A stretch of DNA of 64,000 nucleotides from an uncultured Bacilli bacterium (lineage in GTDB: Bacteria; Bacillota_I; Bacilli_A; RF39; UBA660). Of the stretch, positions 147-45,844 are shown in pieces; position 1 is the first letter of the stretch; each line of letters opens with the position of its first letter. A model generated the notes under the pieces. The model had not been told where the DNA came from. It did no database searches and saw only the letters and a program-made list of their open reading frames with translations. Position numbers and translations under genes: made by a program. Where the stretch lies: NCBI GenBank assembly GCA_944364015.1, contig CALVVX010000001.1, positions 6,357 through 70,356 on the forward strand. The letters run 5' to 3'.

Positions 147-1262
147 TTAGTAAGTTTTTATCGGTAAAACTAATTGAATTAATGAAATATCATTATTAGA
201 TTTTAATATAATTGGACTACTATCATCGTTAATATAAAGTGATACTTTTTCTTGATTAAAACTCTTAATAGCATCTAACATATATTTAGAACTAAATGAA
301 ATAGAAACACTACCTTCACTATCTACATTTAATTTCTCTTCTACTTTACCTATTTCTGGTGAATTAGAAGAAATAATAAGCTCTCTATTAATAAGTTCTA
401 ATTTTATAGTATTTTTATCTTTATCAGAAGTAAGTAATGAAGCTCTATCAATCATTTCATATAAAGAATTTGAATCAATTTCAATTACAGTAGCAAAATT
501 ATTTGGAATAATAGATGAATTAGCAGGGTAAGTACCACTCAATAATCTTGATAGAAATAAAATATTTTTATATTTGAATAAAATTTTATTATTAAATAAA
601 TGTAACTCTAAATTCTCATCATCATCATCTACTATTTTTGATAATTCTAATAAATTCTTACCAGGAATAACAATATTAACAGATGAATCTAAATCTTTAT
701 CTATATTAATGACTTTTCTAGCTAAACGATATGAATCAGTTGCAATAACTTCAAGAGCATTATTATCTATTCTAAAATTAATTCCTGTTAATATAGGTCT
801 TGTCTCACTTTGAGCAGTAGCAAAAAATGTTTGATTAATAATTGTTTTAAATTCATCAGTATTTAAAATTATAGGTTCTTTAGTCTCTTCTAATTCTAAA
901 TTAGGAAATTCCTCTGGATTAATACCATTCAAATTAAATTCTGTATTAGAAGTAGAAACTATCATTTTAAATCCATCAATAACCTCAATAGTAATATCAG
1001 TATCAGGAAGTTTTCTAATAATTTCTACAATGTATTTTCCCCCAATTACTATACTTCCTAATTCTTTTATCTCACTAATATCTTTTTTATCAATAAAAGA
1101 TCTAACAGATATATCAGTATCGCTTGCAAATAAATATAATCCTTCCTCTTTCAAATCAAACTTAATACCTGTTAATATAGGAATTAAATTTCTAGTTGAA
1201 ATAGCTTTAGAAGTATGATTTAAGTTTTCTAATAAAATATTTCTCTTAATTATAAATTTCAT
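147..1262 (-). CDS. dnaN: DNA polymerase III beta sliding clamp
   Basis: The 371-aa product begins MKFIIKRNILLENLNHTSKAISTRNLIPILTGIKF, with beta-clamp family similarity throughout. It lies immediately downstream of dnaA. The start was moved to the internal ATG (SD AGGA upstream); the 36-codon extension in the ORF track is low-complexity and overlaps the DnaA-box/DUE region. Confidence 0.9.
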   Translation of the reverse strand: MKFIIKRNILLENLNHTSKAISTRNLIPILTGIKFDLKEEGLYLFASDTDISVRSFIDKKDISEIKELGSIVIGGKYIVEIIRKLPDTDITIEVIDGFKMIVSTSNTEFNLNGINPEEFPNLELEETKEPIILNTDEFKTIINQTFFATAQSETRPILTGINFRIDNNALEVIATDSYRLARKVINIDKDLDSSVNIVIPGKNLLELSKIVDDDDENLELHLFNNKILFKYKNILFLSRLLSGTYPANSSIIPNNFATVIEIDSNSLYEMIDRASLLTSDKDKNTIKLELINRELIISSNSPEIGKVEEKLNVDSEGSVSISFSSKYMLDAIKSFNQEKVSLYINDDSSPIILKSNNDISLIQLVLPIKTY

Positions 1263-1430
1263 TCTATTCCTTCTTTCTTTATTTATTATATATATATTAT
1301 TATTATTATACTGTGGAAACTGTGGAAAACTAACTCTAAGTCTTATAATATAAGGAAAAGTTTTCCACAAGCCTGTGGATAAAATTAAAAGTTATCCACA
1401 TTTATCCACAACTTTATGTGGATAAACTTG
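1263..1430. promoter_or_regulatory. oriC: oriC part 2 (dnaA-dnaN spacer): cluster of at least 7 DnaA boxes plus an AT-rich unwinding element
   Basis: TGTGGAAA x2 at about 1313-1329, TTTTCCACA at about 1361, TGTGGATAA at about 1374, TTATCCACA x2 at about 1392-1410 and TGTGGATAA at about 1418. Upstream is (TA/TTA)n at about 1281-1310, a DUE-like stretch. The layout matches the bipartite Firmicute oriC. Confidence 0.8.
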
Positions 1431-2775
1431 ATTTTAGTTCTTCAATTATTTGTTTTAATTGTTCATTTTTTTCTAATTCATCTTCTATTTTTTGATAAGC
1501 ACTAATGATTGTAGAATGATCTCTACCACCAAAGTATGTTCCTATTTTTGGAAACGATTCTGTTGTTAGTTTTCTACATAAATAAATAGCAACTTGTCTA
1601 GGATAATTGATTGTTTGATTTCTCTTTTTTCCTTTAATATCATCGATATTAACCTTAAAATAATCACATACTACTCTTTGTATACGATGAACATCGTTTT
1701 TATACACACTACGATCAATTAATTGATCTTTTAAAGCATCTACTGCTATATCTAGGCTAACAACACCTTTATTCATCATAAGAGCATAAGCAAATACTCT
1801 AGTAATTGCTCCTTCTAATTGTCTAACATCAGAATCAAAACTATTAGCAATGTATTCAATAACATCTTCTGGTACATCTTGAGCAGCTTCTTGATGAGAT
1901 ATTTTTTTCTTAATAATATTAACTCGAAGTTCAAAATCAGGAGGAGTAATATTAGCAGTAAGCCCCCAGTTAAAACGTGTAAGTAATCTATTTTCTAACA
2001 TTTTTAAATCATCAACGGATCTATCAGAAGCAATAATAATTTGTTTATTAGAATTATATAATTCATTAAAAGTATGGAAAAATTCCTCTTGTCCTTTAGT
2101 AGCAGTACCTAAAAATTGAATATCATCAATAATCAAAACATCAATATTTCTATATCTATTTTTGAAATTATCAATTTTTTCAAAACTATTTTTATCATTA
2201 TTTCTAACAGCATTGATAAAATCATTAACAAATTTATCAGATGAAATATATAAAACTTTTTTATTAGAATTTTCTAAAATATAATTACCAATAGCCTGCA
2301 TTAAATGTGTTTTTCCTAAACCACTTTTACTATATAAAAATAATGGATTATAAGCCTTACCAGGTTTTTCCGCTACTGCTCTAGCGGCCACAAATGCAAA
2401 TTTATTACTGCTACCTACTATGAAATTATCAAAAGTATAATTTGGATTTAAATTAGCATCTACTGCACTTTGATAAGGAACACCTGCTTGAATATCTTGA
2501 GTAATATTATTTTCTTTATCAGATACTTCACTTTCTAACTTAAATACAAAATTAAAATTAGTACCAGTTAGAGAGTTGAATATTTTTTCCATTAAATCTT
2601 TATAATTTTCTGTCAAATGTTTAATATGTAATTGCATAGGAACAACCACAATAGCATTTGTATCAGTTAAATCATGAAGTTTAGTGTCTTTAAACCAAGT
2701 TTCAAACGATAAAGAGGATACTTGCTCTTTTATCATTTCCAAAAAATTATTCCATAAAGTATCGGTATTCATCAT
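1414..2775 (-). CDS. dnaA: Chromosomal replication initiator DnaA
   Basis: 453 aa with AAA+ Walker A GLGKTHLMQAIGN, DnaA sensor motifs and a C-terminal DNA-binding domain. Canonical position next to dnaN. Confidence 0.95.
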   Translation of the reverse strand: MMNTDTLWNNFLEMIKEQVSSLSFETWFKDTKLHDLTDTNAIVVVPMQLHIKHLTENYKDLMEKIFNSLTGTNFNFVFKLESEVSDKENNITQDIQAGVPYQSAVDANLNPNYTFDNFIVGSSNKFAFVAARAVAEKPGKAYNPLFLYSKSGLGKTHLMQAIGNYILENSNKKVLYISSDKFVNDFINAVRNNDKNSFEKIDNFKNRYRNIDVLIIDDIQFLGTATKGQEEFFHTFNELYNSNKQIIIASDRSVDDLKMLENRLLTRFNWGLTANITPPDFELRVNIIKKKISHQEAAQDVPEDVIEYIANSFDSDVRQLEGAITRVFAYALMMNKGVVSLDIAVDALKDQLIDRSVYKNDVHRIQRVVCDYFKVNIDDIKGKKRNQTINYPRQVAIYLCRKLTTESFPKIGTYFGGRDHSTIISAYQKIEDELEKNEQLKQIIEELKSSLST

Positions 2776-3067: not shown

Positions 3068-4816
3068 CTATTTTAATTCAACCATCCATTTATCATATAT
3101 AGAAGCATTAGTACTACTAGGCTCTGGATTAGGAAGTTCCATTCTAACAATCATAGGAATTTTCATCATTCTACCAAAAGCAACACATATACCAGATTGT
3201 AAAGCTTTTTGCTTTTCGATAACATCTGCACTAATATTTGGTACCATTTTTCTAATATATTCTAAATCGGTTGGATGATTAATTTTAAATATCAAAAAGT
3301 TACTACATTGAGAAATAACAGTTTCTGATAATTCAGTAGGTCTTTGGGTAATTAAGTCTAAAACTAAACCAAATTTACGTCCTTCTTTAGCAATTCTTTC
3401 AAAAATATTATAACCAAGAATTTCATTATCAAAATCTTTTTGAACATATCTATGAGCTTCTTCTAACATAATATGAATAGGCATTGAACCACGATCAGGC
3501 ATTTGTTTTGAAAACTTAAATAATAATCTTGAATAAATTTTAACCAAAGTTTTTGCAAATCTATCATCAACATCTTCTAAAACAAAATTAATTATTTGAG
3601 CTCTTTTATTATTTTCATAAGCAATAATATCATATATAAATTGATTTAGATCTACAAAGTTATCATATTTAAAAAATCTTGAATTAGAACTATTATTTAA
3701 AGTATGTAACCTAACCTTTAATGCAGTAGCCTCAGTATACGATTTTTCATTTAATAAAAGTCCTTCAGAAATTAAAGCAAAGTTAAGTGCCACTTCTAAA
3801 TCATCTAAATTAAAATATATAGGTACATAATCTTCATTCCATTTAGTTTCATTATCAACAAATTTTTGAATATATTCTGCAATTAAAATACGTTCTACAA
3901 ATTCTCCTTGACTATCAATATCAAAACATTTTCTAAATTGACGAGTATATCCAACACCAGGAACTTCAACATCTAAATTTAAATCTTCTGTATTACAATC
4001 TGTTAAAATAGAAAATATTTGATCCCTTATCCTAGCGGATACTTGATTAGTATACATAACAGAAATAATTGCTTTAGCTATTAAGTGATTTTTATATCTT
4101 TTAGTCTCTTCATCATCTCTAGCAAAAACTGAAACATAACTTAACATTTTTTCTATAACCATTAATTGTGAATAGCTAGTAACATCTAATAAATTAGCAT
4201 AATCATCAACATTAAGTAGCCAAAGTGGTAATTTAACTATATTATAATCAGTATCACCACTTGTAGTATACATCTTATAGTTAAAATTTGCATTATAAGT
4301 ATTAATACTACGAAAAGCATTATCATATTCACTGGTATTATTAAAAATAAATATATTACTATTAAAAGGTATTTTATCTTTCATATTAAATAAATTTTGT
4401 ACTAATCTAGCAACGCCATATGTTTTACCAGAACCAGTATTACCAAAAATAGCACTGTGATTTGAAAACATATCGTCAATATTAATCTTAATTGGATAAT
4501 TATATAAAGGAGAAATACCTAAAGTCATACTTTTAGGATCATTATCTCCCACTATTTCGGCTAGTTCTTCAGTATTAATAATCCTAATCTTCGCAGTCAA
4601 ACTAGGTTTACGAATAATACCACTATAAAATTTACCATTAATAAATTCTCCTAAAAAAGTAATTTTAATGTTCTCTCCATCAACTTCTTCAATTTCTCCT
4701 AATATTTTTTTATCATCTTCAAAAACAACATTAAAATTAAGAAGATCTTCACTAACTACACCTGCAATCTTAACTAAAGCATAATTTTTACTAATTGAAA
4801 TTATTTTTTCAAACAT
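3068..4816 (-). CDS. HerA/FtsK-superfamily (DUF87-like) P-loop ATPase with an N-terminal barrel domain
   Basis: Walker A GNTGSGKTYG, Walker B/DEAH-like IMLEEAHRYV, and a downstream ITQRPTEL...ISQCSNFLIFKINHPTD block typical of HerA-clade ATPases. The N-terminal roughly 90 aa has a HAS-barrel-like pattern. Start set to the third ATG (SD AGAGGG 6 nt upstream). Confidence 0.6.
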   Translation of the reverse strand: MFEKIISISKNYALVKIAGVVSEDLLNFNVVFEDDKKILGEIEEVDGENIKITFLGEFINGKFYSGIIRKPSLTAKIRIINTEELAEIVGDNDPKSMTLGISPLYNYPIKINIDDMFSNHSAIFGNTGSGKTYGVARLVQNLFNMKDKIPFNSNIFIFNNTSEYDNAFRSINTYNANFNYKMYTTSGDTDYNIVKLPLWLLNVDDYANLLDVTSYSQLMVIEKMLSYVSVFARDDEETKRYKNHLIAKAIISVMYTNQVSARIRDQIFSILTDCNTEDLNLDVEVPGVGYTRQFRKCFDIDSQGEFVERILIAEYIQKFVDNETKWNEDYVPIYFNLDDLEVALNFALISEGLLLNEKSYTEATALKVRLHTLNNSSNSRFFKYDNFVDLNQFIYDIIAYENNKRAQIINFVLEDVDDRFAKTLVKIYSRLLFKFSKQMPDRGSMPIHIMLEEAHRYVQKDFDNEILGYNIFERIAKEGRKFGLVLDLITQRPTELSETVISQCSNFLIFKINHPTDLEYIRKMVPNISADVIEKQKALQSGICVAFGRMMKIPMIVRMELPNPEPSSTNASIYDKWMVELK

Positions 4817-4886
4817 ACACATCCCTCTATTCTAAAAAAATTATATCAAAAAAAAATAAAAAAAACAATTAATTATTCAAAAAATA

Positions 4887-13797: not shown

Positions 13798-15630
13798 ATG
13801 AATAAATATGAAGTAATCGTAGTAGGAGGAGGACATGCTGGCGTAGAATCAGCATTAGCTACTGCTCGTCTAGGACATAAAACCCTCTTAATAACAGGAA
13901 GAATAGAAAACATTGCAACAATGCCATGTAATCCCTCAATCGGAGGTTCCTCAAAAGGAATAATAGTAAGAGAAATAGATGCCCTAGGAGGAGAAATGGG
14001 AATAAATGCAGATAAAACATTAATCCAAATGAAAATGTTAAACTCCTCAAAAGGACCTGCTGTAAGAAGCTTAAGGGCGCAAGCAGATAAAATAACTTAT
14101 CCAAAAGAAATGCAAAAAACTCTTAAAAATCAAGAAAATTTAGATATAAAAGAAGCAATGGTTGAAGATTTAATAATAGAAAATAAAAAAGTAAAAGGAA
14201 TAATTACAGATAAATTAGAAAAAATAGAATCTAAAATAGTTATTTTAACAACAGGAACTTATTTAAAATCAGACATCTTAATCGGAAGCAGTAGAACAAG
14301 AAGTGGACCACATGATGAAAAGCCTAGTTTACATTTATCAGATAAATTAAAAGAATATGGATTCAAAATACTACGTTTAAAAACAGGAACACCTCCAAGA
14401 ATAGCTAAAGATAGTATTGATTTTAGTAAAGCAAAAGTAGAAGAAGGAGATAAAAAAAGCTATACATTTTCGCATGATATAAAAGCAATATATGATATAA
14501 ATAATCAAGTTCCATGTCATCTAATATATACTACTTTAAAAACTCATGAAATAATATTAAATAACTTAAATAAATCTGCAATGTATGGTGGAATAGAAGA
14601 CATCATAGGAATTGGTCCTAGATATTGTCCTTCTATTGAAGACAAATTAGTAAAATTTAAAGATAAAGATAGACATCAACTATTTTTAGAACCAGAAAGT
14701 TTGTATTATGATGATATATATATCCAAGGATTTTCTACTAGTATGCCAAAAGATATCCAAGAGCAAATGGTAAAAAGTTTACCAGGATTAGAAAACGCTA
14801 AAATATTAAGATATGCCTATGCAATAGAATATGATGCAATATATCCAACACAAATAAATGCCTCACTAGAGACTAAAATAATAGAAAATTTATTTACCGC
14901 AGGACAAATAAATGGCACCAGTGGTTATGAAGAAGCTGCTGCTCAAGGATTAATCGCAGGAATAAATGCTTCATTAAAATTAAGAAACAAAGAACCATTA
15001 ATATTAAAAAGAAATGAAGCATATATTGGCGTTTTAATAGATGATTTAGTTACAAAGGGGACAAAAGAACCATATCGTATGTTAACTTCGCGAGCAGAAT
15101 ATCGATTACTATTACGCCATGATAATGCAGATTTAAGATTAAGAGAATATGGTTATAAAGTAGGATTAATTTCAGAAGAAAAATATCAAAAATTAATTCA
15201 AAAAAAAGAAGATATCAAAAAATTAATAAACGAAATAAAAACAAAGAAAATATCAATAACAAAAGATAATAAAAAAACAAGTCTAAGCATATATGAATAT
15301 TTAAAAACACCATCTACTTCTTTATTAGAAATATTAAAAGAAGATAAAAACTATTCACAAGAAGTAATAGAACAAGTAGAAATACAAGTTAAATACGAAG
15401 GTTACATAAAAAAAGTAGAAAGAGAAGCAGAAAAAATGCTAAAAAACGAATCAAAACAAATACCAAAAGACATAGATTACAATAAAGTAACAAATATAGC
15501 TACAGAAGCTCGTCAGAAATTAATTGAAGTAAAACCTAAAACAATTGGTCAAGCATTAAGAATAAGTGGTGTAAATCCATCAGATATATCAATATTAATG
15601 GTTTATTTAAGGAAGTATTATAATGAATAA
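13798..15630 (+). CDS. mnmG: tRNA uridine 5-carboxymethylaminomethyl modification enzyme MnmG (GidA)
   Basis: FAD-binding N-terminus VVGGGHAGVESALA. Length and synteny match. Confidence 0.95.
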   Translation: MNKYEVIVVGGGHAGVESALATARLGHKTLLITGRIENIATMPCNPSIGGSSKGIIVREIDALGGEMGINADKTLIQMKMLNSSKGPAVRSLRAQADKITYPKEMQKTLKNQENLDIKEAMVEDLIIENKKVKGIITDKLEKIESKIVILTTGTYLKSDILIGSSRTRSGPHDEKPSLHLSDKLKEYGFKILRLKTGTPPRIAKDSIDFSKAKVEEGDKKSYTFSHDIKAIYDINNQVPCHLIYTTLKTHEIILNNLNKSAMYGGIEDIIGIGPRYCPSIEDKLVKFKDKDRHQLFLEPESLYYDDIYIQGFSTSMPKDIQEQMVKSLPGLENAKILRYAYAIEYDAIYPTQINASLETKIIENLFTAGQINGTSGYEEAAAQGLIAGINASLKLRNKEPLILKRNEAYIGVLIDDLVTKGTKEPYRMLTSRAEYRLLLRHDNADLRLREYGYKVGLISEEKYQKLIQKKEDIKKLINEIKTKKISITKDNKKTSLSIYEYLKTPSTSLLEILKEDKNYSQEVIEQVEIQVKYEGYIKKVEREAEKMLKNESKQIPKDIDYNKVTNIATEARQKLIEVKPKTIGQALRISGVNPSDISILMVYLRKYYNE

Positions 15631-16324
15631 GAAAGAATTTATAACCAAAATAGAAGAATTAGGAATAAAACTAGATAACGAAAAAATAGAGCAATTAGAT
15701 TTATATATGAAATTATTACAAACAGAAAATAAAAAATATAATCTAACTGCAATAATTAAAAACGAAGATATATATTTAAAGCATTTTTATGATAGTCTTA
15801 CTATTTTTAAAATAGAAAAATTATCTAATCAAAAAATATGTGATTTAGGAACAGGAGCGGGTTTTCCTGGTTTGGTTTTAAAAATAGTTTTTCCTAATTT
15901 AGATGTAACCTTAATTGAGGCTACTAATAAAAAATGTGAGTTTTTAAAATTAGTTATAAATAAACTAAACTTAAAAAAAATTACAGTAATAAATACTCGT
16001 GCAGAAATTTATGCCAAAAACAACAGAGAAATATTTGATATAGTAACTGCTCGTGCAGTAGCAGCCTTAAAACATTTATTAGAATATGCTATTCCCTTAC
16101 TGAAAGTAAAAGGTTACTTTATACCACTAAAGAGTAATATTGATAATGAAACAATAAATATTGAAAATTATTATAAAAAGTTAAAAATAAGACAAGTAAA
16201 TAAAATAGAGTTTTTTTTACCTAAAGAATTAAGTAAAAGAACTTTAATAAAATATGAAAAATTAGAAAAGACAAATCTAATTTATCCTAGAAATTATAAT
16301 AAAATAAAAGAAAAAGATATATAA
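15623..16324 (+). CDS. rsmG: 16S rRNA (guanine527-N7)-methyltransferase RsmG (GidB)
   Basis: SAM-binding motif DLGTGAGFPG. Canonical position after mnmG. Confidence 0.85.
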   Translation: MNKKEFITKIEELGIKLDNEKIEQLDLYMKLLQTENKKYNLTAIIKNEDIYLKHFYDSLTIFKIEKLSNQKICDLGTGAGFPGLVLKIVFPNLDVTLIEATNKKCEFLKLVINKLNLKKITVINTRAEIYAKNNREIFDIVTARAVAALKHLLEYAIPLLKVKGYFIPLKSNIDNETINIENYYKKLKIRQVNKIEFFLPKELSKRTLIKYEKLEKTNLIYPRNYNKIKEKDI

Positions 16325-16364
16325 ATATAAAAAATATGTTATAATTTTACTATGGAGGATAAAA

Positions 16365-17240
16365 ATGTTAAAAAAGAATAAAAATAAGAAAATTATTATA
16401 CTTATTACAATAATATTAATTGTATTAATAATAGTTATTAGTATATTACTAAATATAAATAACACTAATAAAATTAAAAAATCGGCTATTTTATGGTATA
16501 ACGATCAAAACGGATTATATAATGAAACTACAATTGGAGCATTATATAAAAATGGATATATAAATAGCAATAAATCTTTATTTTTAAAACAAGATTTATC
16601 ATGTAAAATAATAAAAATAGAAAATAACAAAGCTATAATAACAAATGATGTTGATTGTAACTTAAATGATCAGATGCAAAAAATACCTACTTTAATAGTT
16701 AATTTATATAAAACTAGCGATAATTCAAAATATGATCCTAATACATGGACTTCTTCAGATATAGAAGTAAAATTAAGCTATAAAAACAATAATTTATTAG
16801 AAGAAGATATAAATCGTATTTATTTAACAAAAGATTATTCTGAAAACAAAGATGATAATAGCTTAATAATAAGTACTCAAAGTTTTATAGAAGACACTTA
16901 TACTATTAATGTAATGTTAAATGATGGTTCTATTTATAGTAAAGATTTTAGTATAAAAATAGATAAAACTAAACCTATATATATAGATAAAGAGATAACA
17001 AATGAAGATTATAAAGCTTATTTTGAAGATAATGAAAGTAATTTAGATGAAGTGTTATATTATTTAACAGATAATAATACACCTCCTACTAATATAGACC
17101 AATTTAATAAAAAAGAAAATATTTCTTTAGAATCAGATAAAACATATCAAGTCTGGGCAGTAGCCACAAATAATGCAAATTTATATTCTGATTTTATAGA
17201 AATAGGCAATTTTAGTCTTAAAACTTTTGAAGAAGAATAA
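16365..17240 (+). CDS. Membrane-anchored hypothetical protein, paralog of 19703..20554
   Basis: Signal-anchor N-terminus. It shares LYNETTIG.LY, TYTIN..L.DGSIY...F.I.ID.T.P.YI and FEDNES.....LYY..D..TPP.N..QF blocks with the other paralog. The C-terminal module (ID.TKP...D..S..D..LYY...NTP) is Ig-like and also recurs inside the pilin-like protein. Confidence 0.5.
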   Translation: MLKKNKNKKIIILITIILIVLIIVISILLNINNTNKIKKSAILWYNDQNGLYNETTIGALYKNGYINSNKSLFLKQDLSCKIIKIENNKAIITNDVDCNLNDQMQKIPTLIVNLYKTSDNSKYDPNTWTSSDIEVKLSYKNNNLLEEDINRIYLTKDYSENKDDNSLIISTQSFIEDTYTINVMLNDGSIYSKDFSIKIDKTKPIYIDKEITNEDYKAYFEDNESNLDEVLYYLTDNNTPPTNIDQFNKKENISLESDKTYQVWAVATNNANLYSDFIEIGNFSLKTFEEE

Positions 17241-17323
17241 AAAATATACTCTTAAAATACTCTTAAATAGAGTTTTTCTTTTATAAAAATTATGATATAA
17301 TAAAGAAAATAGGAGTGTGCAAT

Positions 17324-19690
17324 ATGAATAAAAAAGGATTTACACTAACAGAACTACTCGTGGCAATAGCAATATTAGCAATAGTAGTATCTTTAGGAAT
17401 CGGGGGTTATATATTGTATCAAAAACAAGCTAAAGAATATGCTTATGAAAGAAGTAAAGATTCTTTAATTTCTTCTGCTATATTATATTATCAAGAAAAA
17501 GAATTAAAACCAATTGCAAGTATAGATGATAAAAATTATTATTGTATAACAGTAAGAGATTTAATAAATTATGGTTATCATGATGAAAAAGAGATAAAAA
17601 ATGTCGATCGAATTACTCTTGATACATATATAAAAATAACAGAAAATATTAATACACAAGCTAGAGAAAAACAAGAATTAATATCAAATGATGTATTAGA
17701 TATATGTAATATTGCATCTCAAAAATTAATAGCTAATACTAAGGAAGTATATTCTAATAAAGTAATAAGTGAAATAGAAAAATTAAAATTTTATAATAAT
17801 TATACTTGTTATTATAAACAAGATAATAATGCTTATATAACTGGAGAATATATAGATGGTGATGAATATGGATATTGTCATTTTAATAATTTGGCTCCAA
17901 ATACTAATTATACATATAAAGCATGTGCTACTGCAGAGTTCAACTCAAAAGAATATGAAGCATGTTCTGATGAGATAAAGGTTACAACAAAATCAATTGA
18001 AACACCAAAAATAGAAGAATATTCATATTTTATATCAAATATAGAATACAAAATAAGTGATGGATATAATTTTAATACTTGGTCTAATGACAAAGTAATT
18101 AATTTAAAATATAATTATGAACAATTAAATCCTCAAACAACTTACATAATGTTTTACGTAGATACGTCTAATACTGTAAAAGTAACTAATACAAATATTT
18201 TAAAATGTAACAATAGTAGTTGTACAACAACATCAAATGTAGCTAAAAATACACTTCTACAAAGTGGTTGGTATGGATTAAAAATAGATGATAATAAAAC
18301 TAAAAGTTTGACACTTAGAATAAATAAATCTAATGTTAATATTCAAGCTAAAATATATGATGGTACTAATAATAGTCAAATAGTAAACTATAAATCAAGT
18401 AAAATAGATAATGTAAAACCAAATATAAGTAGTATAAGTCAAACAAATAACTATAATAGTAGTACTAAACAAAGCCAAATAAAAATAACTACATATGATG
18501 CTGATTCTGGTGTAGATAAAATATATATTAGTAAATCAAATAAAACTCCGACACTAAACTCAACAGGATGGACAACATTATCTAATACAACATATCAAAC
18601 ATATCTTGATATTGAGACAACTTATTATATGTGGGTTATGGATAAAGCTAAAAATATTTCAACTATAAAATCATACTATGTAACAAATCCTGATAAAGAA
18701 CCACCAGTAATAACAACTACAATACCATCATATTGGACTCAAAGTGGTAAAAATGTTCAAATAAAAATAACAGACAATGTAAGTTTAAAAAGTTACAAAG
18801 TATATAAATCAAATAATAGTAGTAATATAGTTGCAAGTAAAACGTATACATCTACTAAAACATCTGATACATTTAGTGTATATTTAGATAATAATAACTA
18901 TACAGTATATGCTTGTGATACTAGTAATAATTGTAGTAGCAAAAACATATCTAAATCATCATTATATATAGATAATACCCCTCCAAGTGTTGGAACTTAT
19001 AGATATAATGGTAGATGTAGTGGTGATAATTTATATTTTAATTACACAATAAGTCCAAAAGATACAGGCTCTGGATCAATATCAGTATATCAATATATAT
19101 CTACTAGTAGTTCCACACCATCTACTAATAGTAATCTTTGGGAATATTATAGTACTTATAATACACTACCATGTGGTAAGACATATTATCTACATATAAA
19201 ATTAGTAGATGCTGTAGGAAATGTAACTAGAACAAGATTAGACAGCAGAAAATGTAATTGTCCTGCGCCAGAACCAGTACAAGATTCAGATTGTAAAATA
19301 ATATGTATTATGAGAAAAGCAAGAGATAATTGGCATGGTGCAAGTAGTTCAGATAAAATTAAATGGCATGCGATTAACTCAATTTTAGCGGGAGACGTAA
19401 AATATCCATCACAAATGATTTATGTTGGAGGTAATGTTGGTTCATGGTACTATAAAGGAGAAGTAATTGAAACATGGTATAACAAAAATTGTAGTCCAAG
19501 CACAACCTGTGAAAATCCAACCTGGGAAAATTACAATAATAAAAGATATGCACAATATAATTTTAATACCAATGTAGCAAGTTGTTCTTTATACGATGAA
19601 CAATATCCAAGTGGAGAATGTAAAAATGGTGTATGTTACTGTTGTAAACGAGGAACTGGATGGTATGGTGGTACTTGCTATGATAAATAA
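17324..19690 (+). CDS. Large type IV pilin-like / pseudopilin-family protein (prepilin-type N-terminal cleavage/methylation domain), Cys-rich C-terminus
   Basis: The N-terminus MNKKGFTLTELLVAIAILAIVVSLG matches the class III (prepilin) signal G|FTLxE plus a hydrophobic helix. The 788-aa body is Ser/Thr/Asn-rich with Ig-like repeat modules. The last roughly 150 aa contain about 16 Cys. The track start at 17315 is a GTG; the ATG at 17324 has the SD AGGAG 8 nt upstream. Confidence 0.6.
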   Translation: MNKKGFTLTELLVAIAILAIVVSLGIGGYILYQKQAKEYAYERSKDSLISSAILYYQEKELKPIASIDDKNYYCITVRDLINYGYHDEKEIKNVDRITLDTYIKITENINTQAREKQELISNDVLDICNIASQKLIANTKEVYSNKVISEIEKLKFYNNYTCYYKQDNNAYITGEYIDGDEYGYCHFNNLAPNTNYTYKACATAEFNSKEYEACSDEIKVTTKSIETPKIEEYSYFISNIEYKISDGYNFNTWSNDKVINLKYNYEQLNPQTTYIMFYVDTSNTVKVTNTNILKCNNSSCTTTSNVAKNTLLQSGWYGLKIDDNKTKSLTLRINKSNVNIQAKIYDGTNNSQIVNYKSSKIDNVKPNISSISQTNNYNSSTKQSQIKITTYDADSGVDKIYISKSNKTPTLNSTGWTTLSNTTYQTYLDIETTYYMWVMDKAKNISTIKSYYVTNPDKEPPVITTTIPSYWTQSGKNVQIKITDNVSLKSYKVYKSNNSSNIVASKTYTSTKTSDTFSVYLDNNNYTVYACDTSNNCSSKNISKSSLYIDNTPPSVGTYRYNGRCSGDNLYFNYTISPKDTGSGSISVYQYISTSSSTPSTNSNLWEYYSTYNTLPCGKTYYLHIKLVDAVGNVTRTRLDSRKCNCPAPEPVQDSDCKIICIMRKARDNWHGASSSDKIKWHAINSILAGDVKYPSQMIYVGGNVGSWYYKGEVIETWYNKNCSPSTTCENPTWENYNNKRYAQYNFNTNVASCSLYDEQYPSGECKNGVCYCCKRGTGWYGGTCYDK

Positions 19691-19702
19691 TAAGGGTGTG
19701 AG

Positions 19703-20554
19703 ATGATGAGAAGAAAAATATTAATACCATTGCTAATACTTATATTACTAGTATTAATTGCCACTATAGCATATGGAATATATTATAATAATAAAAACAA
19801 TAACGATATATTAAATGCTAGTATAAAATGGGCAAAAGATTTAGATCGATTATATAATGAAACAACAATCGGTACTTTATATCATTATGGATATATAAAA
19901 GATAATAAAACACTTTTACTAAAGAAAAATAGAGATTGTCAAGTAATAGAAATATATCAAGATAAAGCAAATTTTAAAGAAGAAGAAAATTGTAACTTAA
20001 ATGAAGAATTAAAAAAAGTACCAATAATACAAATAAAAATGACAAATGTATCAGATAATACAGAATATAGAGAAAATACATGGACTTCTTCTGATGTAAA
20101 AGTAGATGTATACTTTAAAAACAATCAAGCTCCTATTAATATAAGTAATATGTATATAACACTTAATTCACAACCAATAATAACAGAAAACTTAATTATA
20201 AAAGCAGATGAGAATAAAATTGATACATATACTATAAATTTAGTATTAGAAGATGGATCAATATATACTAAAAACTTTGAAATATTAATAGATACAACTG
20301 CTCCTACTTATATAAATGCTGATATGTCTAATAATGATTTTGATGCTATTTTTGAAGATAATGAAAGCGGTGTAGAAAAAATACTATATTATGTATCAGA
20401 TCAAGAAACACCACCATCAAATTTAGAACAATTCCTACCAAAAGAACAATTAGAACTACTAACAGGAATAACATATAATATTTGGGCAGTTGGAGTTAAT
20501 CAAGCAGGTGTTTATTCAGACATAACATATATTGGACAATATAATAAGAATTAA
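19703..20554 (+). CDS. Membrane-anchored hypothetical protein, paralog of 16365..17240
   Basis: See the paralog entry; conserved blocks are visible by eye. Confidence 0.5.
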   Translation: MMRRKILIPLLILILLVLIATIAYGIYYNNKNNNDILNASIKWAKDLDRLYNETTIGTLYHYGYIKDNKTLLLKKNRDCQVIEIYQDKANFKEEENCNLNEELKKVPIIQIKMTNVSDNTEYRENTWTSSDVKVDVYFKNNQAPINISNMYITLNSQPIITENLIIKADENKIDTYTINLVLEDGSIYTKNFEILIDTTAPTYINADMSNNDFDAIFEDNESGVEKILYYVSDQETPPSNLEQFLPKEQLELLTGITYNIWAVGVNQAGVYSDITYIGQYNKN

Positions 20555-20621: not shown

Positions 20622-21761
20622 ATGGAACCAGGAAAAGAAGTTATAAAAATAAGTTTAAATAGCATTATTCCAAATAGATTTCAACCTAGAATATCATTTG
20701 ATGAAGAAGCTTTAAATGAATTAGCAAGTTCAATAAAGACATATGGAATATTACAACCATTAATATTAAGACCTCTAGGAGATAAATATGAAATAATTGC
20801 AGGAGAAAGAAGATATAAAGCTGCAACTATCGCAGGTTTAAGTGAAGTACCAGCTATATTAGTTAACCTAGATGATCAAACAAGTGCAGAACTAGCGATA
20901 ATAGAAAATATACAAAGAAAAGATTTAACCGCAATAGAAGAAGCAAAATCATATAAAAAATTATTAGATTTAGGTAATTATACTCAAGAACAATTAGCGG
21001 CAAAAATGGGAAAAAATCAATCAACAATAGCAAATAAACTACGTCTTTTAACATTATTACCAGAAACTCAAGATGCACTAATGAATAATTCAATATCAGA
21101 AAGACATGCTAGGAGTTTATTACAATTAAAAGACGAACCAGGAAAACAAAGAGAAGTATTAAATCGCATTATAAAAGAAAGATTAACAGTAAAAGATACA
21201 GATGAGTTAATAAAAAATATGATAGGAGAAAAAGATATGAATGAATTTAATCAAAATAGTAACTTAAATCCGCAACCAATGAACTTTAATAACTATGAAA
21301 CTGATAGCTTTGATTTAAACACTTTAAATGATCCAAATTTAACAATACCTACTAACCCACTGCCAAACCAAATATCTAAACCAACAACTAATACAACATT
21401 TGATTTTAGTAGTAGTTTTATACCAAACACTAATACTCAAACTACTACACCAAACTTTGATAGTTTATTAAAAGTAGAAGAACCACCAGTAGTAGAACCA
21501 CCAAAAGCTCCAACAGTTCAAATTGAAAAATCACCAGCCCCTAATCAATATTTTCCATCACTTGAAGAAAAACCTGCTAATATGAACTTTGGACAAGCGT
21601 TTTCTAATCCTATACAAAATAATTCAATTAATATTATGACTGCTATTGATAATACAAAACAATTAATTAGAAACCTTGAATCAGAAGGATATAAAGTTGA
21701 GACAAATGAATTAGATTTACCAGATAGTTATCAAATAACAATAAAAATAAAGAAAAACTAG
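20622..21761 (+). CDS. parB: ParB/Spo0J/Noc-family partition protein with a long low-complexity C-terminal tail
   Basis: N-terminal ParB box (ISLNSIIPNRFQPRISFDEEALNELASSIKTYGILQPLILRP..YEIIAGERRYKAA) and an HTH region. The C-terminal roughly 170 aa are N/P/T/Q-rich. There is no adjacent parA. Confidence 0.75.
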   Translation: MEPGKEVIKISLNSIIPNRFQPRISFDEEALNELASSIKTYGILQPLILRPLGDKYEIIAGERRYKAATIAGLSEVPAILVNLDDQTSAELAIIENIQRKDLTAIEEAKSYKKLLDLGNYTQEQLAAKMGKNQSTIANKLRLLTLLPETQDALMNNSISERHARSLLQLKDEPGKQREVLNRIIKERLTVKDTDELIKNMIGEKDMNEFNQNSNLNPQPMNFNNYETDSFDLNTLNDPNLTIPTNPLPNQISKPTTNTTFDFSSSFIPNTNTQTTTPNFDSLLKVEEPPVVEPPKAPTVQIEKSPAPNQYFPSLEEKPANMNFGQAFSNPIQNNSINIMTAIDNTKQLIRNLESEGYKVETNELDLPDSYQITIKIKKN

Positions 21762-27054: not shown

Positions 27055-27978
27055 ATGCCAAATAAAATAAAAATAGGAATACCTAAAGCATTTTTATATT
27101 ACAGATACCATATTCTATGGGAAAATTATTTAAAAAAAATAAACCTTGAACCAATAATAAGTATCGATACAAATAAAGAAATAATAGAACTAGGAAAAAA
27201 ATATTCAATAGATGAATCATGTTTATCATCTAAAATATATATGGGACATGTAGCTTATTTAAAAGATAAATGTGATTATATATTAGTACCTAGAATATCA
27301 GATTATGGTAAAAATGAAAAAGTATGTGTAAAATTTAATGGATTATATGATATTGTAAAAAACACCTTTAAAAACATTAATTTAATAGACTATAATATAG
27401 AAAAAACAAAACATAAAACAGAATTTATTGGATTAATAAAACTAGGTTTAAAATTTAATAAAAATATATTTAAGTTGATTTTAGCATATAAATATGCTAA
27501 AAGAAAAGAAAAAATATATTATAATAGAATAATTTATCATCAAAAACAAGCACTAAAGAGTAAAAAGAAAAAAATATTAATTGTTTCACATCCATATAAT
27601 ATATATGATAAATATATTGGAATACCAATTACTAATTTTTTAAAAAGTATGGATATAGAAGTATTATATGCAGACAGATTAGATAGAAAAAAAGCTATTA
27701 AAAATTCATATAAGTTATCTAAAAGTTTATATTGGAATTATTCCAGAGAATTAATTGGAGCAATAGAATATTATAAAAACAAAATAAAAGGAATAATATT
27801 TATAACAGCATTTCCATGTGGACCAGACTCTTTAGTAAATGAATTACTTATTAGAAAAATAAAAAATATCCCTATGATAAACATATTAATAGATGAATCA
27901 AGTTCTAAAGTAGGATTACATACTAGATTAGAAAGTTTTATAGATATTATTAATCAAAAGGAGCCAACAGATGAATAG
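27055..27978 (+). CDS. 2-hydroxyacyl-CoA dehydratase component-like protein (HgdB/BcrB-like family), paralog 1
   Basis: Paralogous to the next gene (shared ELGxKYSxDxxC and FxCxPxxxxxxL blocks) with a conserved Cys pattern. Family assignment is from memory of Cys-motif proteins and is weak. Confidence 0.3.
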   Translation: MPNKIKIGIPKAFLYYRYHILWENYLKKINLEPIISIDTNKEIIELGKKYSIDESCLSSKIYMGHVAYLKDKCDYILVPRISDYGKNEKVCVKFNGLYDIVKNTFKNINLIDYNIEKTKHKTEFIGLIKLGLKFNKNIFKLILAYKYAKRKEKIYYNRIIYHQKQALKSKKKKILIVSHPYNIYDKYIGIPITNFLKSMDIEVLYADRLDRKKAIKNSYKLSKSLYWNYSRELIGAIEYYKNKIKGIIFITAFPCGPDSLVNELLIRKIKNIPMINILIDESSSKVGLHTRLESFIDIINQKEPTDE

Positions 27979-29047
27979 TAAAATAACATTTCCTCATATA
28001 GGAAACTATTATATTCCAATTTATTATTTAATAAGTAATATTTGCCACTGCGAAGTAATAGTACCACCTCCTATTACAAGAAAAACAATAGAATTAGGCA
28101 GTAAATATAGTCCTGATTATGTATGTGTACCATTTAAATATAATTTAGGTAATTTCATAGAAAGTATTGAAAAAGGAGCAAATATAATATTACAAGCAGG
28201 AGGAGGTTGTAGATATGGTTATTATGCAGAATTACAAGAACAAATATTAAAAGATTTAGATTATGATATAAAATTTATAAATTTTATTGAAAATAATAGT
28301 ATTTCAATAAAAAAAGTATATAAATTTGCTAAAAATATTAATCCAAAATTAAACAAAATAAAATTTTATTATTATCTTATAAATGCTATATTAATGATAA
28401 TAATTATGGATAAATTAGGTAAATACAATAGAGAAAATATTGGATTTGCTCAAAATTATAAAGAATTTGAACAAATAGAGAAAAAAATGTTAAATGAATT
28501 AAAAAACAAAATAAATATAATTAATTTAATAAAAATATATTTTAAATATAAAAAACAATATTTAAGTATAAAAATAAACAAACCAAAAAATTGTCTAAAA
28601 GTAGGAATAGTTGGAGAACTATACTCGATTATGGAACCGTTTTCTAGTTGTTATATTGAAAAGAAATTAGCTCAAAAACATATTGAAGTAAAAAGATTTA
28701 CTACCATTACTTATTTATTATTACAAAAAAAACATAACATATCTAAATTATTAAAAAAAGGGAAAAAATATTTAAAATATCATCTTGGTGCTGATGGCAC
28801 TGAAAGTGTTGTATTATCAGAAGAACTAGCAAAAGCAAAATATGATGGAATAATTCATATAAAAAGCTTTGGTTGCACTCCTGAAATAAATGCTATGCCT
28901 GCACTTGCAAGAATATCAGAGGATTATCATATTCCTATAATTTATTTTAGTTTCGATTCACAAGACAACACCGTGGGAGTAGATACTAGATTAGAAGCTT
29001 TTTATGATATGATATTAGCAAAGAAAGAAAAAAATAAATTAAAATAA
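27971..29047 (+). CDS. 2-hydroxyacyl-CoA dehydratase component-like protein, paralog 2
   Basis: Translationally coupled to paralog 1. Cys motifs CHC, VCVPFKY, GGGCRYG and FGCTPEI. SD AAGGAG. Confidence 0.3.
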   Translation: MNSKITFPHIGNYYIPIYYLISNICHCEVIVPPPITRKTIELGSKYSPDYVCVPFKYNLGNFIESIEKGANIILQAGGGCRYGYYAELQEQILKDLDYDIKFINFIENNSISIKKVYKFAKNINPKLNKIKFYYYLINAILMIIIMDKLGKYNRENIGFAQNYKEFEQIEKKMLNELKNKINIINLIKIYFKYKKQYLSIKINKPKNCLKVGIVGELYSIMEPFSSCYIEKKLAQKHIEVKRFTTITYLLLQKKHNISKLLKKGKKYLKYHLGADGTESVVLSEELAKAKYDGIIHIKSFGCTPEINAMPALARISEDYHIPIIYFSFDSQDNTVGVDTRLEAFYDMILAKKEKNKLK

Positions 29048-31926: not shown

Positions 31927-31974
31927 CTTTACATTTATAAATAGCTAATGTATAATATAGCTGGAGGGTTTAAT

Positions 31975-32523
31975 ATGTTAGATAAAAAAGGATTAAAACA
32001 AGAACTAAATAAAAGAATATATGTAGATAATGCTGAAGATAAATTGGGGGAAAACTTTATTTATGTAACTTTAGGAAATACACTAAAAGTATATAATGAT
32101 CAAATGACAACACTAGATTTAAAAAAGGAAAACAAAACAAAAACATTAACAATACCAGAAAGTGGTATAGTAATAGAACCAAATAGATTATATTTAGGAA
32201 GAACAAACGAATATACAAAAACAGAAGGCTATGTACCACTACTTGCGGGATTAGATTCTCTTGCACTATTAGGAATAGAAATACATATAACTGCAGGATT
32301 TGGAGACAATGGTTTTGAAGGAACATGGACTTTAGAAATAACATCAACGCAGCCAGTTATTTTATATCCAAATATGCTAATTGGTAAGATATATTATCAT
32401 CCTTTAATCGGAGATCCATCAATAAAATATCAAGGAAAATATTTAAGGCAAATAGAAGAAACTGCATCTAGAATAGATAGAGAATATACAAAAAAATTAA
32501 CAAAAGGGGGTAAAACATGTTAA
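31975..32523 (+). CDS. dCTP deaminase-like (dUTPase-fold) protein, single domain, with an atypical catalytic motif
   Basis: Aligns by eye to Dcd: GYVPLLAGLDSLALLGIEIHITAGFGDNGFEGTWTLEITS...NMLIGKIYY versus E. coli [35 protein letters not shown]...[18 protein letters not shown] is replaced by GLDSLALLG (Ser111 and Arg115 equivalents lost), while the Glu in TLE is kept. Start set at the ATG with SD GGAGGG; the track start lies in an extended -10 TGTATAAT. Confidence 0.6.
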   Translation: MLDKKGLKQELNKRIYVDNAEDKLGENFIYVTLGNTLKVYNDQMTTLDLKKENKTKTLTIPESGIVIEPNRLYLGRTNEYTKTEGYVPLLAGLDSLALLGIEIHITAGFGDNGFEGTWTLEITSTQPVILYPNMLIGKIYYHPLIGDPSIKYQGKYLRQIEETASRIDREYTKKLTKGGKTC

Positions 32524-33542
32524 CAAATACTGAAATAAAAAAACAATTAGAAACTGGAAATATACAAATAACAAATTTAAAAGATCATTCACTAGATAAA
32601 CCAAATAGTTGTCTAGTTAGTATAGAAGATTATTTATATACATTTGATTATAGAATAATAGATACAAAAGATAAAGATAAATATATGAAAGAAATATCAA
32701 CAGGAGCTGTGGATACGTTAAAAAAAATAAAAATAGATAAAAAAGGTACATTGTTAGAACCTCATAAAGTATATATAACAAAAACAAGTGAGAAAATAAC
32801 TACAAATGGATATGTACCTGTATTAAATGGAAGAACATCTCTATCATTATTAGGAGTCAGTATAGAATTAAATAATGGATTTTGGACACAACATCACAGT
32901 GGGCAATTATTAATTACAATAGTTTGTACAAAACCAACTATTATATATCCTAATATAGAAATAGGAAACTTAACATTTTTTGAAAGTACAAACTTTCAAA
33001 GTAAAACTAACGGCATGTTAAGTGGTAGAGAAATAGAAAGACAAATGAAACTTGGAAATATAATAATAACTCCTAAAGATAATATATTAATTAATCCAAA
33101 TTCTGTTAATTTAAGTTTAAATAATACTTTAGGATATTATACAGAGCCTATAATAGATTTAAAGAAAGAAAATAAAATAGAAACAATAAAATTTGATGAA
33201 AATGGAATAATATTGTCTCCTAATCATACTTATGTTACAAGAACAAACGAGTGGACAGAAACAAAAGAACATATTCCCATGTTAAGCGGTAGAAGTTCTT
33301 TAGGAAGATTAGGATATCATGCACATTGTTCTGGTGGTATGGGCTCTATTGGCTATAAAGGATATTTTCATATGGGATTAAGGGTAACTACACCTATAAA
33401 AATATATCCTAATATGAAATGTGCTCAAATATACTATTTTAAACCTGTTGGAGAAACTATTACTAAATATAATGGTAGTATGCAAAACTTATCTGCTGAA
33501 CAATTAGGTAGTAGTTATCATAAAAAACTAATAAAAAAGTAA
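32517..33542 (+). CDS. Tandem-duplicated dCTP deaminase-like (two dUTPase-fold domains) protein
   Basis: Domain 1 reads MLTNTEI...NGRTSLSLLG...SGQLLITIV. Domain 2 reads MLSGREI...SGRSSLGRLGYHAHCSGGMGSIGYKGYFHMGLRV...NMKCAQIYYF. Domain 2 keeps GRSSLxRLG but lacks the Glu, and domain 1 lacks both. SD AAGGGGG. Confidence 0.6.
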   Translation: MLTNTEIKKQLETGNIQITNLKDHSLDKPNSCLVSIEDYLYTFDYRIIDTKDKDKYMKEISTGAVDTLKKIKIDKKGTLLEPHKVYITKTSEKITTNGYVPVLNGRTSLSLLGVSIELNNGFWTQHHSGQLLITIVCTKPTIIYPNIEIGNLTFFESTNFQSKTNGMLSGREIERQMKLGNIIITPKDNILINPNSVNLSLNNTLGYYTEPIIDLKKENKIETIKFDENGIILSPNHTYVTRTNEWTETKEHIPMLSGRSSLGRLGYHAHCSGGMGSIGYKGYFHMGLRVTTPIKIYPNMKCAQIYYFKPVGETITKYNGSMQNLSAEQLGSSYHKKLIKK

Positions 33543-44534: not shown

Positions 44535-44556
44535 TTTAAGTAGTTTCTTTTATATG
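44521..44556. terminator. Bidirectional intrinsic terminator between convergent rpmE and the secreted-protein operon
   Basis: AAGAAACT...AGTTTCTT stem with inner pairing (about 13 bp total), followed by TTAT. Confidence 0.55.
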
Positions 44557-45197
44557 AAATCAATAATAACAGTAGTTGTTTTTGTCTGCCCATCTACAGT
44601 ATAATTTGCTTTTATTGTTAATACATCATTGTATTCTACAATACCAAATTTTCCATATATAGTTAATCTAAATTGCATATTTAAAGTAGCTATATCATTT
44701 GGAGCAAGCGATGTTTTATCAATACTTATATTGACATTATCTATTAGATTTGACCATGAATCTATTTCATAGGTAGTGTTTCCATTTTCCCATGTTAAAT
44801 TACTTAAATTTTTTATTTTAAAATTCAAATTAAAGTTTTCTCTTTTTGGGTTTACTAGTTGTCCAATTACATAAGTTTTTGTTATATTTAATTTATATGT
44901 ACTAGTTGCCACATCATATGATTCATTTATATTTTCAAATCTATTTTGATTACTAATTGCGTTTCCCTCTATATATTCGGATTTAAAACTTTCATTGAAA
45001 TTTACTCCATTTTCGGTTTGCTCCGGTAGTGCTGGTAAAATATTTTCAGGCCACACATAACCATCAATACTAGCTACTCCAGTTACACTTAAAGTTTCAC
45101 TATAGTATGCATATGATATTCCTAATATTATTATAAATAAAATATATAATGAAAGAATAACATTTCTACTTTTTTTGTGTTGCTTTAATATAGGCAT
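44550..45197 (-). CDS. Secreted protein with a SipW-cognate (TasA/camelysin-type) signal peptide
   Basis: N-terminal TM followed by AYYSETLSVTGVAS, which matches the AyFsDte...G pattern of SipW-dependent signal peptides. Confidence 0.4.
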   Translation of the reverse strand: MPILKQHKKSRNVILSLYILFIIILGISYAYYSETLSVTGVASIDGYVWPENILPALPEQTENGVNFNESFKSEYIEGNAISNQNRFENINESYDVATSTYKLNITKTYVIGQLVNPKRENFNLNFKIKNLSNLTWENGNTTYEIDSWSNLIDNVNISIDKTSLAPNDIATLNMQFRLTIYGKFGIVEYNDVLTIKANYTVDGQTKTTTVIIDFI

Positions 45198-45801
45198 TAA
45201 AACTCACATCCTTTTGTGCAGAATAACTATCTGCATTCCATGTTACTGTTATAGTTCCATTTATGGTATTTCCACTTAATAAATCTCCACTTATATCATT
45301 TGTATTAAATGATACATCACTATCTTGATTACTTGTTATAACTAAATTTTCTAAAGTAGCATCTATTGTTCCATTGTTTGATAGGTCTGTTTGCGTACCA
45401 TTAACTTCAACAGTTATATCATCTTCATTACATGCCGTTGTTGTTCCTGAAGATGATTGCTGTTTACAAACTACTGATGGAGCTCCTACAGAAGCCTCAA
45501 TTGATCCTAGATTTGTAATAGTGTATTCAACAACACTTTTGCTTCCTGGTTGAGCTAATTCTGTAGCTATTTGGAATGTTAATACGCCATCTGGAGACAT
45601 TGTTGTTCCTAGTGGTGTAATCGTTGTTGTTGCACCAGTATCAGTAGCGGTAGCATTAGTAAATTTAACATCAAAATCTCCTGTTGTAGTAGCAGTACCT
45701 GTTATAGTAAGTGTTGATGCAAATGCTGCAAAACTTACACCTACTGCTAAAATACCAATAATTGCTCCTACTAAAACGCTTTTTCCATACATATTTTTCA
45801 T
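45166..45801 (-). CDS. Secreted Thr/Gly-rich protein with a SipW-cognate-type signal peptide
   Basis: VGVSFAAFASTLTITGTATTTGDF. Overlaps the downstream paralog-like gene by 32 nt. Confidence 0.4.
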   Translation of the reverse strand: MKNMYGKSVLVGAIIGILAVGVSFAAFASTLTITGTATTTGDFDVKFTNATATDTGATTTITPLGTTMSPDGVLTFQIATELAQPGSKSVVEYTITNLGSIEASVGAPSVVCKQQSSSGTTTACNEDDITVEVNGTQTDLSNNGTIDATLENLVITSNQDSDVSFNTNDISGDLLSGNTINGTITVTWNADSYSAQKDVSFNAYIKATQKK

Positions 45802-45844
45802 TTTTTATCATCCTATCACAATAATTATAGCAAACATAAATATC

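Follow-up and report, generated by a model that had tools for sequence, protein, structure and literature searches.

The stretch of DNA considered here (the window; 64,000 nucleotides (nt) of contig CALVVX010000001.1, from an uncultured Bacilli bacterium) is the replication-origin region of a spore-forming Firmicute with ~25% GC, and it carries, between rsmG and a ParB/Noc-like gene, a block of three genes, the central one encoding an unusually large prepilin of 788 amino acids (aa) and the outer two a pair of membrane proteins referred to below as flankA and flankB. The origin-region genes of the window include dnaN and dnaA (147-2775, minus strand), yidC, jag, mnmE, mnmG and rsmG, and SpoIVA, SpoIID and MreB are encoded further along. 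MnmG is no more than 90% identical to that of any species representative in the genome collection, and its nearest relatives come from metagenome-assembled genomes of uncultured gut Bacilli that are variously labelled Bacilli, Tenericutes, Firmicutes CAG:321, Clostridium sp. CAG:451 and CAG:628. The three intervening genes lie on the same strand and span 16365-20554, between the end of rsmG at 16324 and the start of the ParB/Noc-like gene at 20622. The coordinates and gene order given for this block in a preliminary description of the window were correct; the noc/soj gene that it placed in the same run was not, soj/parA being absent and a single ParB-family gene being present in the window. 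The features of the locus are as follows.

15623-16324, plus strand: rsmG, the upstream boundary of the inserted block (Pfam GidB 3.6e-48; TIGR00138 1.4e-48).
16337-16345, plus strand: TGTTATAAT, an extended -10-like element 5' of flankA, read from the sequence, with putative promoter function.
16354-16358, plus strand: GGAGG 5' of flankA, read from the sequence.
16365-17240, plus strand: flankA, encoding a 291-aa bitopic membrane protein (44% identity to flankB; profile match to the pilin family; no Pfam family).
~17259-17282: a weak hairpin and T-run before the pilin's -10-like element, read from the sequence.
17293-17301, plus strand: TGATATAAT, an extended -10-like element 5' of the pilin gene, read from the sequence, with putative promoter function.
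17324-19690, plus strand: the prepilin gene, 788 aa from its ATG (N_methyl, TIGR02532, AlphaFold2 (AF2)).
17324-17497, plus strand: prepilin residues 1-58, holding the MNKKG leader with a predicted cut before Phe6, the +5 Glu and the long alpha1 helix (N_methyl, TIGR02532, AF2).
17498-17728, plus strand: pilin head, residues 59-135 (AF2 strands, invariant alignment columns).
17729-19252, plus strand: five beta-sandwich domains (AF2, Foldseek, profile search).
19253-19690, plus strand: Pro-rich linker (CNCPAPEPVQDSD), Cys-rich C-terminal domain and stop codon (alignment, AF2).
19703-20554, plus strand: flankB, 283 aa, the flankA paralog, starting 12 nt past the pilin stop.
20622-21761, plus strand: ParB/Noc-like gene, the downstream boundary (ParB_N 3.6e-32; HTH_ParB 5.7e-32; TIGR04285 289 bits, below its cut-off of 315).

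The ATG of the prepilin gene at 17324 has an AGGAG sequence 8 nt upstream, and an alternative GTG at 17315 in the list of open reading frames (ORFs) would lengthen the product to 791 aa. From the ATG, the protein begins MNKKG/FTLTELLVAIAILAIVV (the slash marks the predicted cleavage site) and presents a class III signal, MNKKG/FTLTE, with a basic leader ending in Gly, a hydrophobic stretch and Glu at +5. This signal scores above the curated cut-offs of both Pfam N_methyl (30.6 bits against 21.2) and TIGR02532 (30 against 16.3), and the motif G-[F..]-[TS]-L-x-E occurs just once in all six frames of the window, which bears out the class III signal that had been read into this N-terminus at first sight.

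A structural model of the prepilin was predicted with AF2 from a 21-sequence alignment and has a mean predicted local distance difference test score (pLDDT) of 86. It places the 50-residue alpha1 helix at residues 8-58, followed by a four-stranded pilin head (strands 65-67, 70-76, 102-108 and 114-120; pLDDT 80-91 from helix to sheet), which is marked in the family alignment by the invariant pair C74/C128 and an ITVxDLINxGY motif. Beyond the head lie five predicted beta-sandwich domains (residues ~136-225, 226-360, 361-456, 457-549 and 550-643; pLDDT mostly 85-95), the last three of which are immunoglobulin (Ig)-like repeats with the motifs IDxxxP...DxxSGV...YY.WV.D.AGN. A Foldseek comparison of the model with the PDB returned only tandem Ig/FN3 arrays, at E-values down to 3.5e-11, and a sequence search of the PDB returned pilin N-terminal helices only (e.g., 9egp at 1.3e-8).

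Three homologs were all that a word-indexed search recovered, and an exhaustive HMMER profile search collected 6123 proteins at E <= 0.001. Most of the latter match the Ig-like repeat region only (profile positions ~340-640) and do so within giant surface proteins that carry the repeat in up to 27 copies; Pfam labels the repeats of these giant proteins DUF7743, Big_13 and Big_3_2. The N-terminal region of the prepilin is found in about 25 of the top 150 profile matches. N_methyl is present in all 21 members of the family alignment, where G5, T7, L8 and E10 are invariant at an overall identity of about 25%. Such invariance argues for selection on recognition by a prepilin peptidase, and so strictly kept a cleavage motif implies that these genomes encode an enzyme to process it. 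With its pilin module, five beta-sandwiches homologous to the DUF7743/Big_13 repeats of non-pilin proteins and separate C-terminal domain, the central protein has the make-up of a modular pilin, and we are confident in assigning it to the prepilin family as a modular member. Its size is far beyond that of ordinary pilins, as remarked upon in the preliminary description, and the 788 aa hold a pilin module, Ig-like modules and a distinct Cys-rich end domain.

The Cys-rich nature of this C-terminus, also picked out early, is pronounced, with 12 Cys in the 145 aa of residues 644-788 (8.3%, against 0.75% in 25 other proteins of the window). In the full-length model, a low-confidence, Pro-rich linker (648-653) leads into a compact alpha/beta end domain (655-788), and a separate prediction of the domain alone, which had been proposed as a check, gave a pLDDT of 81.5 and a predicted template-modelling score (pTM) of 0.77. 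The domain is kept in seven divergent prepilins with 27 invariant columns, seven of them Cys. Among the top 150 profile matches, it was found solely in prepilins (P0015, P0016, P0017, P0022 and, in part, P0116), and it is also present in the prepilins P0002 and P0003 and in both pilin genes of the related locus L091. It matched no Pfam family and no PDB sequence, and a fold search found no match in the PDB (best E 4.8) or in BFVD (best E 0.8). A homolog search with the alignment of the domain came back empty, missing even the near-identical, full-length P0001, and was taken as a technical null. Cys counts per predicted domain of the prepilin are all even (2, 4, 2, 0, 2, 2 and 12), and each flank protein has exactly two, a pattern that suggests intradomain disulfides and would fit an exported protein. 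In a presumed strict anaerobe, an exported protein with Cys in such even numbers is unusual and hints at extracytoplasmic disulfide formation.

The proteins encoded on either side of the pilin are paralogs, as first described, with 44% identity over 244 aa (E = 2e-65). Each consists of a basic, K-rich N-terminus, one transmembrane (TM) helix, a W..D....Y..TIGxLYxxGYI segment, a Cys pair and two Ig-like modules with IDxTxP...DxESG motifs; in flankA, the conserved Cys pair is C80/C98 and TIGxLYxxGYI is the head-like motif. The N-termini of the two proteins, MLKKNKNKKIIILITIIL... and MMRRKILIPLLILILL..., lack both a Gly ahead of the hydrophobic segment and a Glu inside it, which is likewise the case in 10 of 10 aligned family members, and neither flankA nor flankB possesses a class III signal or an N_methyl match. 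A Pfam match to the archaeal Pilin_N family in two of ten flank proteins (E = 1.4e-4) probably reflects TM-helix composition and was not used.

The Ig-like module that the preliminary description held to be common to the flanks and the pilin is not significant by BLASTP (E > 1), but it is confirmed by comparison of the two families with hhalign, in which flank positions 9-272 align collinearly with pilin positions 11-446 at 97% probability (E = 1.2e-10). In a second register, flank 104-280 pairs with pilin 458-642 (94% probability). From these alignments, it is concluded that the flank proteins probably derive from the same pilin-plus-Ig architecture as the prepilin, with the processing signal having been lost. 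A further hhalign comparison, of the flank family with the small 283-aa pilins of relatives, reached only 47% probability and was not relied upon.

Pilin and flank genes also keep company elsewhere. They are adjacent in five lineages, counting the window, often 3-25 nt apart and amid unrelated housekeeping neighbours, and the pilins of the divergent paired homologs share 28-37% identity with that of the window. Orthologs of flankB adjoin large pilins in four related loci: L003, with the order rpsI, pilin, flank and gerA genes; L087, where the pilin is followed by a 281-aa flank (E = 2e-78); L088, in which, as in L089, L090, L095 and L096, the pilin is followed by a 293-aa flank between two cation ATPases; and L091, which, like L094, encodes a flank of 308 aa, a pilin of 673 aa, a flank of 313 aa and a pilin of 680 aa, again between two cation ATPases. 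This repeated adjacency argues for a functional pair. A metagenome scan with a flank profile turned up only two lineages, both already known.

In the cation-ATPase lineages, a conserved protein of 124 aa that has a single TM helix and the Ig-like motif YYIWVMDNSGKIS (L088 9192-9566; L091 2874-3248; L095 7112-7486) is encoded two genes upstream of the pilin, or five upstream of the first pilin in L091, and could belong to the same module family as its third and smaller member. In more distant relatives, parB is immediately followed by genes for two small prepilins of ~197 and 283 aa that have DUF5011-like Ig domains (L037 13886-15621; L040, L042, L044 and L046-L048 at ~13900-15560), and in one of these relatives a 344-aa prepilin lies between dnaN and mnmG (L037 8948-9982). 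Origin-proximal orphan pilin genes recur across the clade, in no case with assembly genes next to them.

That the block is an insertion follows from related genomes, in which the preliminary description had advised looking for a direct rsmG-parB junction. Eighty related loci around mnmG were fetched, 65 of which contain both rsmG and a downstream parB. The two genes are no more than 250 bp apart in 52 of the 65, and the spacer holds more than 700 bp of unrelated cargo in 11 (an insertion sequence (IS)-like gene, SPFH-like genes and assorted membrane proteins), so that the two genes normally lie close together, and the spacer has repeatedly received insertions in this clade. By locus, the cargo includes the IS-like gene in L022, SPFH-like genes in L008 and L052, and TM-anchored proteins in L014, L059 and L071. 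The order rsmG-flankA-flankB-parB, without the pilin, is seen in the species nearest to this one (L006, MnmG 90%) and on another contig, L086. Between flankA and flankB, L006 has the hairpin/T-run and the TGATATAAT element that, in the window, lie ahead of the pilin. Since this shared, promoter-bearing spacer leads into flankB in L006 and into the pilin in the window, the pilin would have been gained or lost precisely between that promoter and flankB, and the arrangement is best read as a local gain or loss of the pilin gene within a pre-existing flank pair.

An extended -10-like element, TGnTATAAT, was seen by eye ahead of most pilin and flank genes that were inspected, including those of the homologous loci. 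A generic promoter scan performed no better than on shuffled sequence in this AT-rich DNA, and statements about promoters rest on the TGnTATAAT motif. These elements suggest ordinary vegetative promoters, and flankB is probably co-transcribed with the pilin because its start lies 12 nt past the pilin stop.

As to function, the preliminary description proposed a pilus tip adhesin, or a minor pilin with accessory assembly factors. This idea fits the modular-pilin paradigm (PMC8179133, PMC9934059) and the pairing of pilin with flank, and it stands as a role that we infer. On balance, and with reserve, we favour a model in which the central protein is a tip-displayed modular minor pilin or adhesin, its distal Cys-rich domain being the working end and the flank proteins its co-evolved membrane partners. 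The prepilin would be inserted into the membrane, whereupon a peptidase encoded elsewhere would remove the 5-residue MNKKG leader and methylate Phe1, and the mature subunit of 783 aa would use its alpha1 helix and small pilin head to become part of a type IV filament. Because of its bulk, with five beta-sandwiches in a row and a terminal domain, it would be expected as a low-abundance subunit at or near the filament tip only. There, the Cys-rich domain would be held far from the cell, likely as a ligand-binding (adhesive) module. FlankA would be a duplicate of flankB, and both would be pilin-derived proteins in which the hydrophobic helix, two Ig modules and some of the head survive. Without Gly-1 and Glu+5, which they have lost, they would be expected to escape processing and to remain membrane anchors of N-in/C-out topology. 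In this model, the flanks would dock laterally onto the giant pilin, with head meeting head and Ig meeting Ig, and would stabilise or prime it ahead of assembly, much as PilA stabilises PilC in Streptococcus sanguinis.

Several points weigh against the tip-pilin model, among them the lack of nearby assembly genes. As the preliminary description had it, the window contains no PilB, PilC or PilD gene: a family scan of its ORFs of at least 120 aa found no T2SSE, T2SSF or Peptidase_A24, apart from two matches that were discarded as spurious overlaps, and neither a prepilin peptidase nor an assembly ATPase, a platform protein or a candidate major pilin was found in the 64 kb. The ~4.6 kb past the right-hand end of the window hold tRNA synthetase and radical-SAM genes and no assembly machinery, no machinery genes were found in the 10-kb flanks of any pilin locus, and the T2SSE-type Walker A motif (PilB/ComGA-type) is absent from 94 sequences totalling 1.68 Mb (the window and 93 fetched loci), so that any such machinery in this genome is putative. 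The pilin keeps a Glu5 that the very first subunit of a tip would not need. Pairing of pilin and flank is frequent and not obligatory in cis, there being pilins without a flank gene in L004 (rbgA, pilin, ftsK; 73% identity) and L093 (rpsT, pilin, gpr/spoIIP), and a flank pair without a pilin in L006 and L086. The homology of the flank head by itself is moderately supported: with the TM helix left out, the head region scores 26.8 against the pilin, versus at most 13.9 in 30 column shuffles, at a probability of 58-92%. Finally, nothing points to a ligand for the C-terminal domain.

The main rival to the tip-pilin model is a membrane-anchored surface complex, in which the pilin N-terminus would be only an anchor, processed or not, and the pilin and flanks would together form a wall-spanning, stalk-like adhesin or scaffold with no type IV machine. 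Such a complex would sit comfortably with the lack of assembly genes in the window and near any of the seven pilin contexts, and the flanks, as plain signal-anchored versions of the same architecture, indicate that the ectodomain can work from a simple anchor. However, the strictness of G-F-T-L-x-E in 21 of 21 members, at ~25% identity elsewhere, is hard to explain for a mere anchor, the flanks show how the motif decays where it is unneeded, and the additional small prepilins of relatives suggest that the clade owns a pilin-processing system. We consider the anchored complex clearly less likely than the tip-pilin model.

More speculative, and in our view rather improbable, is the notion that, in uncultured gut Bacilli, the giant pilin and its uncleavable partners make up a surface device of two components that is complete in itself. 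The flanks could then act as a permanent membrane base or terminator to which a single giant pilin, or a few of them, would attach, in the manner of the basal subunit of a sortase pilus, or the pilin could be displayed without a canonical shaft, with its Cys-rich head, perhaps a new fold, binding a host or glycan ligand. If so, the system would represent a type IV pilin derivative that has partly escaped from the classical filament mechanism.

Three further readings are unlikely. An accessory minor pilin of a competence (Com) pseudopilus, serving in DNA capture, comes to mind, as no type IV filaments are more common in Bacilli than those of Com systems, and ComGE is the best named NCBIfam match of the prepilin N-terminus (27 bits, residues 2-54). 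However, 27 bits falls well below the ComGE cut-off of 49 and covers the generic helix only, ComGF scores 15 against 80, and Com minor pilins are small and encoded in a comG operon, none of which occurs in the window. An Ig-like stalk and a Cys-rich end domain are also without precedent in Com pili, all of which makes a Com role quite unlikely. Less likely still is a sporulation or spore-surface fibre protein with a cross-linkable, Cys-rich end domain. Cys-rich proteins are typical of spore coats and appendages, the organism has SpoIVA, SpoIID and other sporulation genes, and two homologs lie beside gerA or gpr/spoIIP genes; against this, the promoters appear to resemble sigma-A extended -10 elements rather than sites for sporulation sigma factors, five other contexts are unrelated to sporulation, and we know of no role for a class III signal in spore assembly. 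The least tenable reading is that the block is mobile-element cargo or a prophage remnant at an origin-proximal site, in keeping with the word "mobilised" in the preliminary description: although the rsmG-parB spacer is recurrently invaded (by the IS-like gene of L022 and by unrelated cargo in 10 other relatives), the locus has no transposase or integrase, a repeat search of the block found no terminal repeats or element boundaries, there is no GC or compositional break with the surroundings, tblastn against 50,697 phage records gave no match and against plasmids a single weak Ig-domain match, and the flank pair is stably kept at the same site in the sister species, so this reading was rejected.

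Other parts of the window hold some unusual genes. The ParB/Noc-like protein, which falls short of the Noc model's cut-off, has a long low-complexity stretch rich in N, P, Q and T between its helix-turn-helix (HTH) and C-terminal parts, and its gene has no adjacent parA/soj. A 584-aa HerA/DUF87-type ATPase (3068-4822), an unusual origin neighbour, adjoins dnaA on the yidC side and, like dnaA, is on the minus strand. Two tandem pairs of paralogs are present, namely two DUF2229/HGD-D-like genes (27055-29047) and two dCTP-deaminase-like genes (31948-33542), the second of which has two matching stretches. Three consecutive minus-strand ORFs at 44550-46950 (215, 211 and 322 aa) have no Pfam match, nor does a 525-aa ORF beside an ABC ATPase (59385-60962). 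A 1183-aa ORF at 52856-56407 matches no Pfam family at E <= 1e-5, and is followed by a 318-aa ORF with a weak aldehyde-dehydrogenase-like stretch only.

Modular pilins are thought to explain many functions of simple type IV filaments, and very few have been studied, none of them from the uncultured, low-GC Bacilli found commonly in the guts of humans and animals. To what is known of them, the present family would add a long stalk of Ig domains on a pilin; a well-predicted, disulfide-rich end domain with no fold relative in the libraries searched, which is a candidate for a new adhesin or receptor-binding fold; and a conserved partner that appears to be a pilin derivative without a processing site, and which may show pilins evolving into, or being aided by, plain membrane-anchored proteins. 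Should the end domain bind a host or dietary ligand, it would provide a handle on the attachment of unculturable gut bacteria.

Modular pilins as such are well documented. Raynaud et al. 2021 listed over 1,200 such proteins with 264 architectures, among which are multi-repeat proteins as long as 860 aa, and argued for a location at the filament tip (PMC8179133). The closest parallel is with S. sanguinis, whose PilB (pilin plus vWA), PilC (pilin plus lectin) and partner PilA (PMC8179133, PMC9934059) share with the present system a monoderm host, a class III signal, a small pilin module with grafted modules, a neighbouring gene for a pilin-like partner and an expected adhesive tip complex. In that species, PilA, a small pilin, binds the modular PilC and stabilises it, and models place the two proteins at the tip (PMC9934059). 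Unlike PilB and PilC, the protein described here has five beta-sandwiches and a Cys-rich end domain unmatched in Pfam, solved structures and BFVD; unlike PilA, a small cleavable pilin, its partners are 283-291 aa in length and lack Gly-1 and Glu+5, and the genes lie outside a pil locus. CofB of the CFA/III pilus of enterotoxigenic Escherichia coli and TcpB of Vibrio cholerae (PMC5207764, PMC8179133) are likewise large minor pilins in which a pilin module and linker are joined to beta-repeat or beta-sandwich domains, and both are tip-located and initiate assembly. In contrast to the prepilin of the window, they are ~500 aa in length, have the long leader of T4b pilins, occur in diderm hosts and are encoded inside a pilus operon; the prepilin had no CofB- or TcpB-specific match in sequence or fold, its matches being generic Ig arrays only.

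For the flank proteins, tip minor pilins of the GspK/PilX type offer a precedent for the loss of Glu5 in pilin-family proteins that work in a tip or priming complex, but GspK keeps its Gly-1 cleavage site and is processed, whereas the flanks have no cleavage site at all. The giant DUF7743/Big_13 surface proteins, of 1,000-6,600 aa and with up to 27 repeat copies, have repeats homologous to the three Ig-like repeats (Ig1-Ig3) of the prepilin and are not themselves prepilins, the repeats being grafted here onto a pilin module; literature searches on DUF7743, and on RFN20 together with pili, found nothing. In kind, then, the protein belongs with the modular pilins already known, and what sets it apart is its domain make-up, an end domain unmatched among solved and viral structures and, above all, its non-cleavable and apparently pilin-derived partners.

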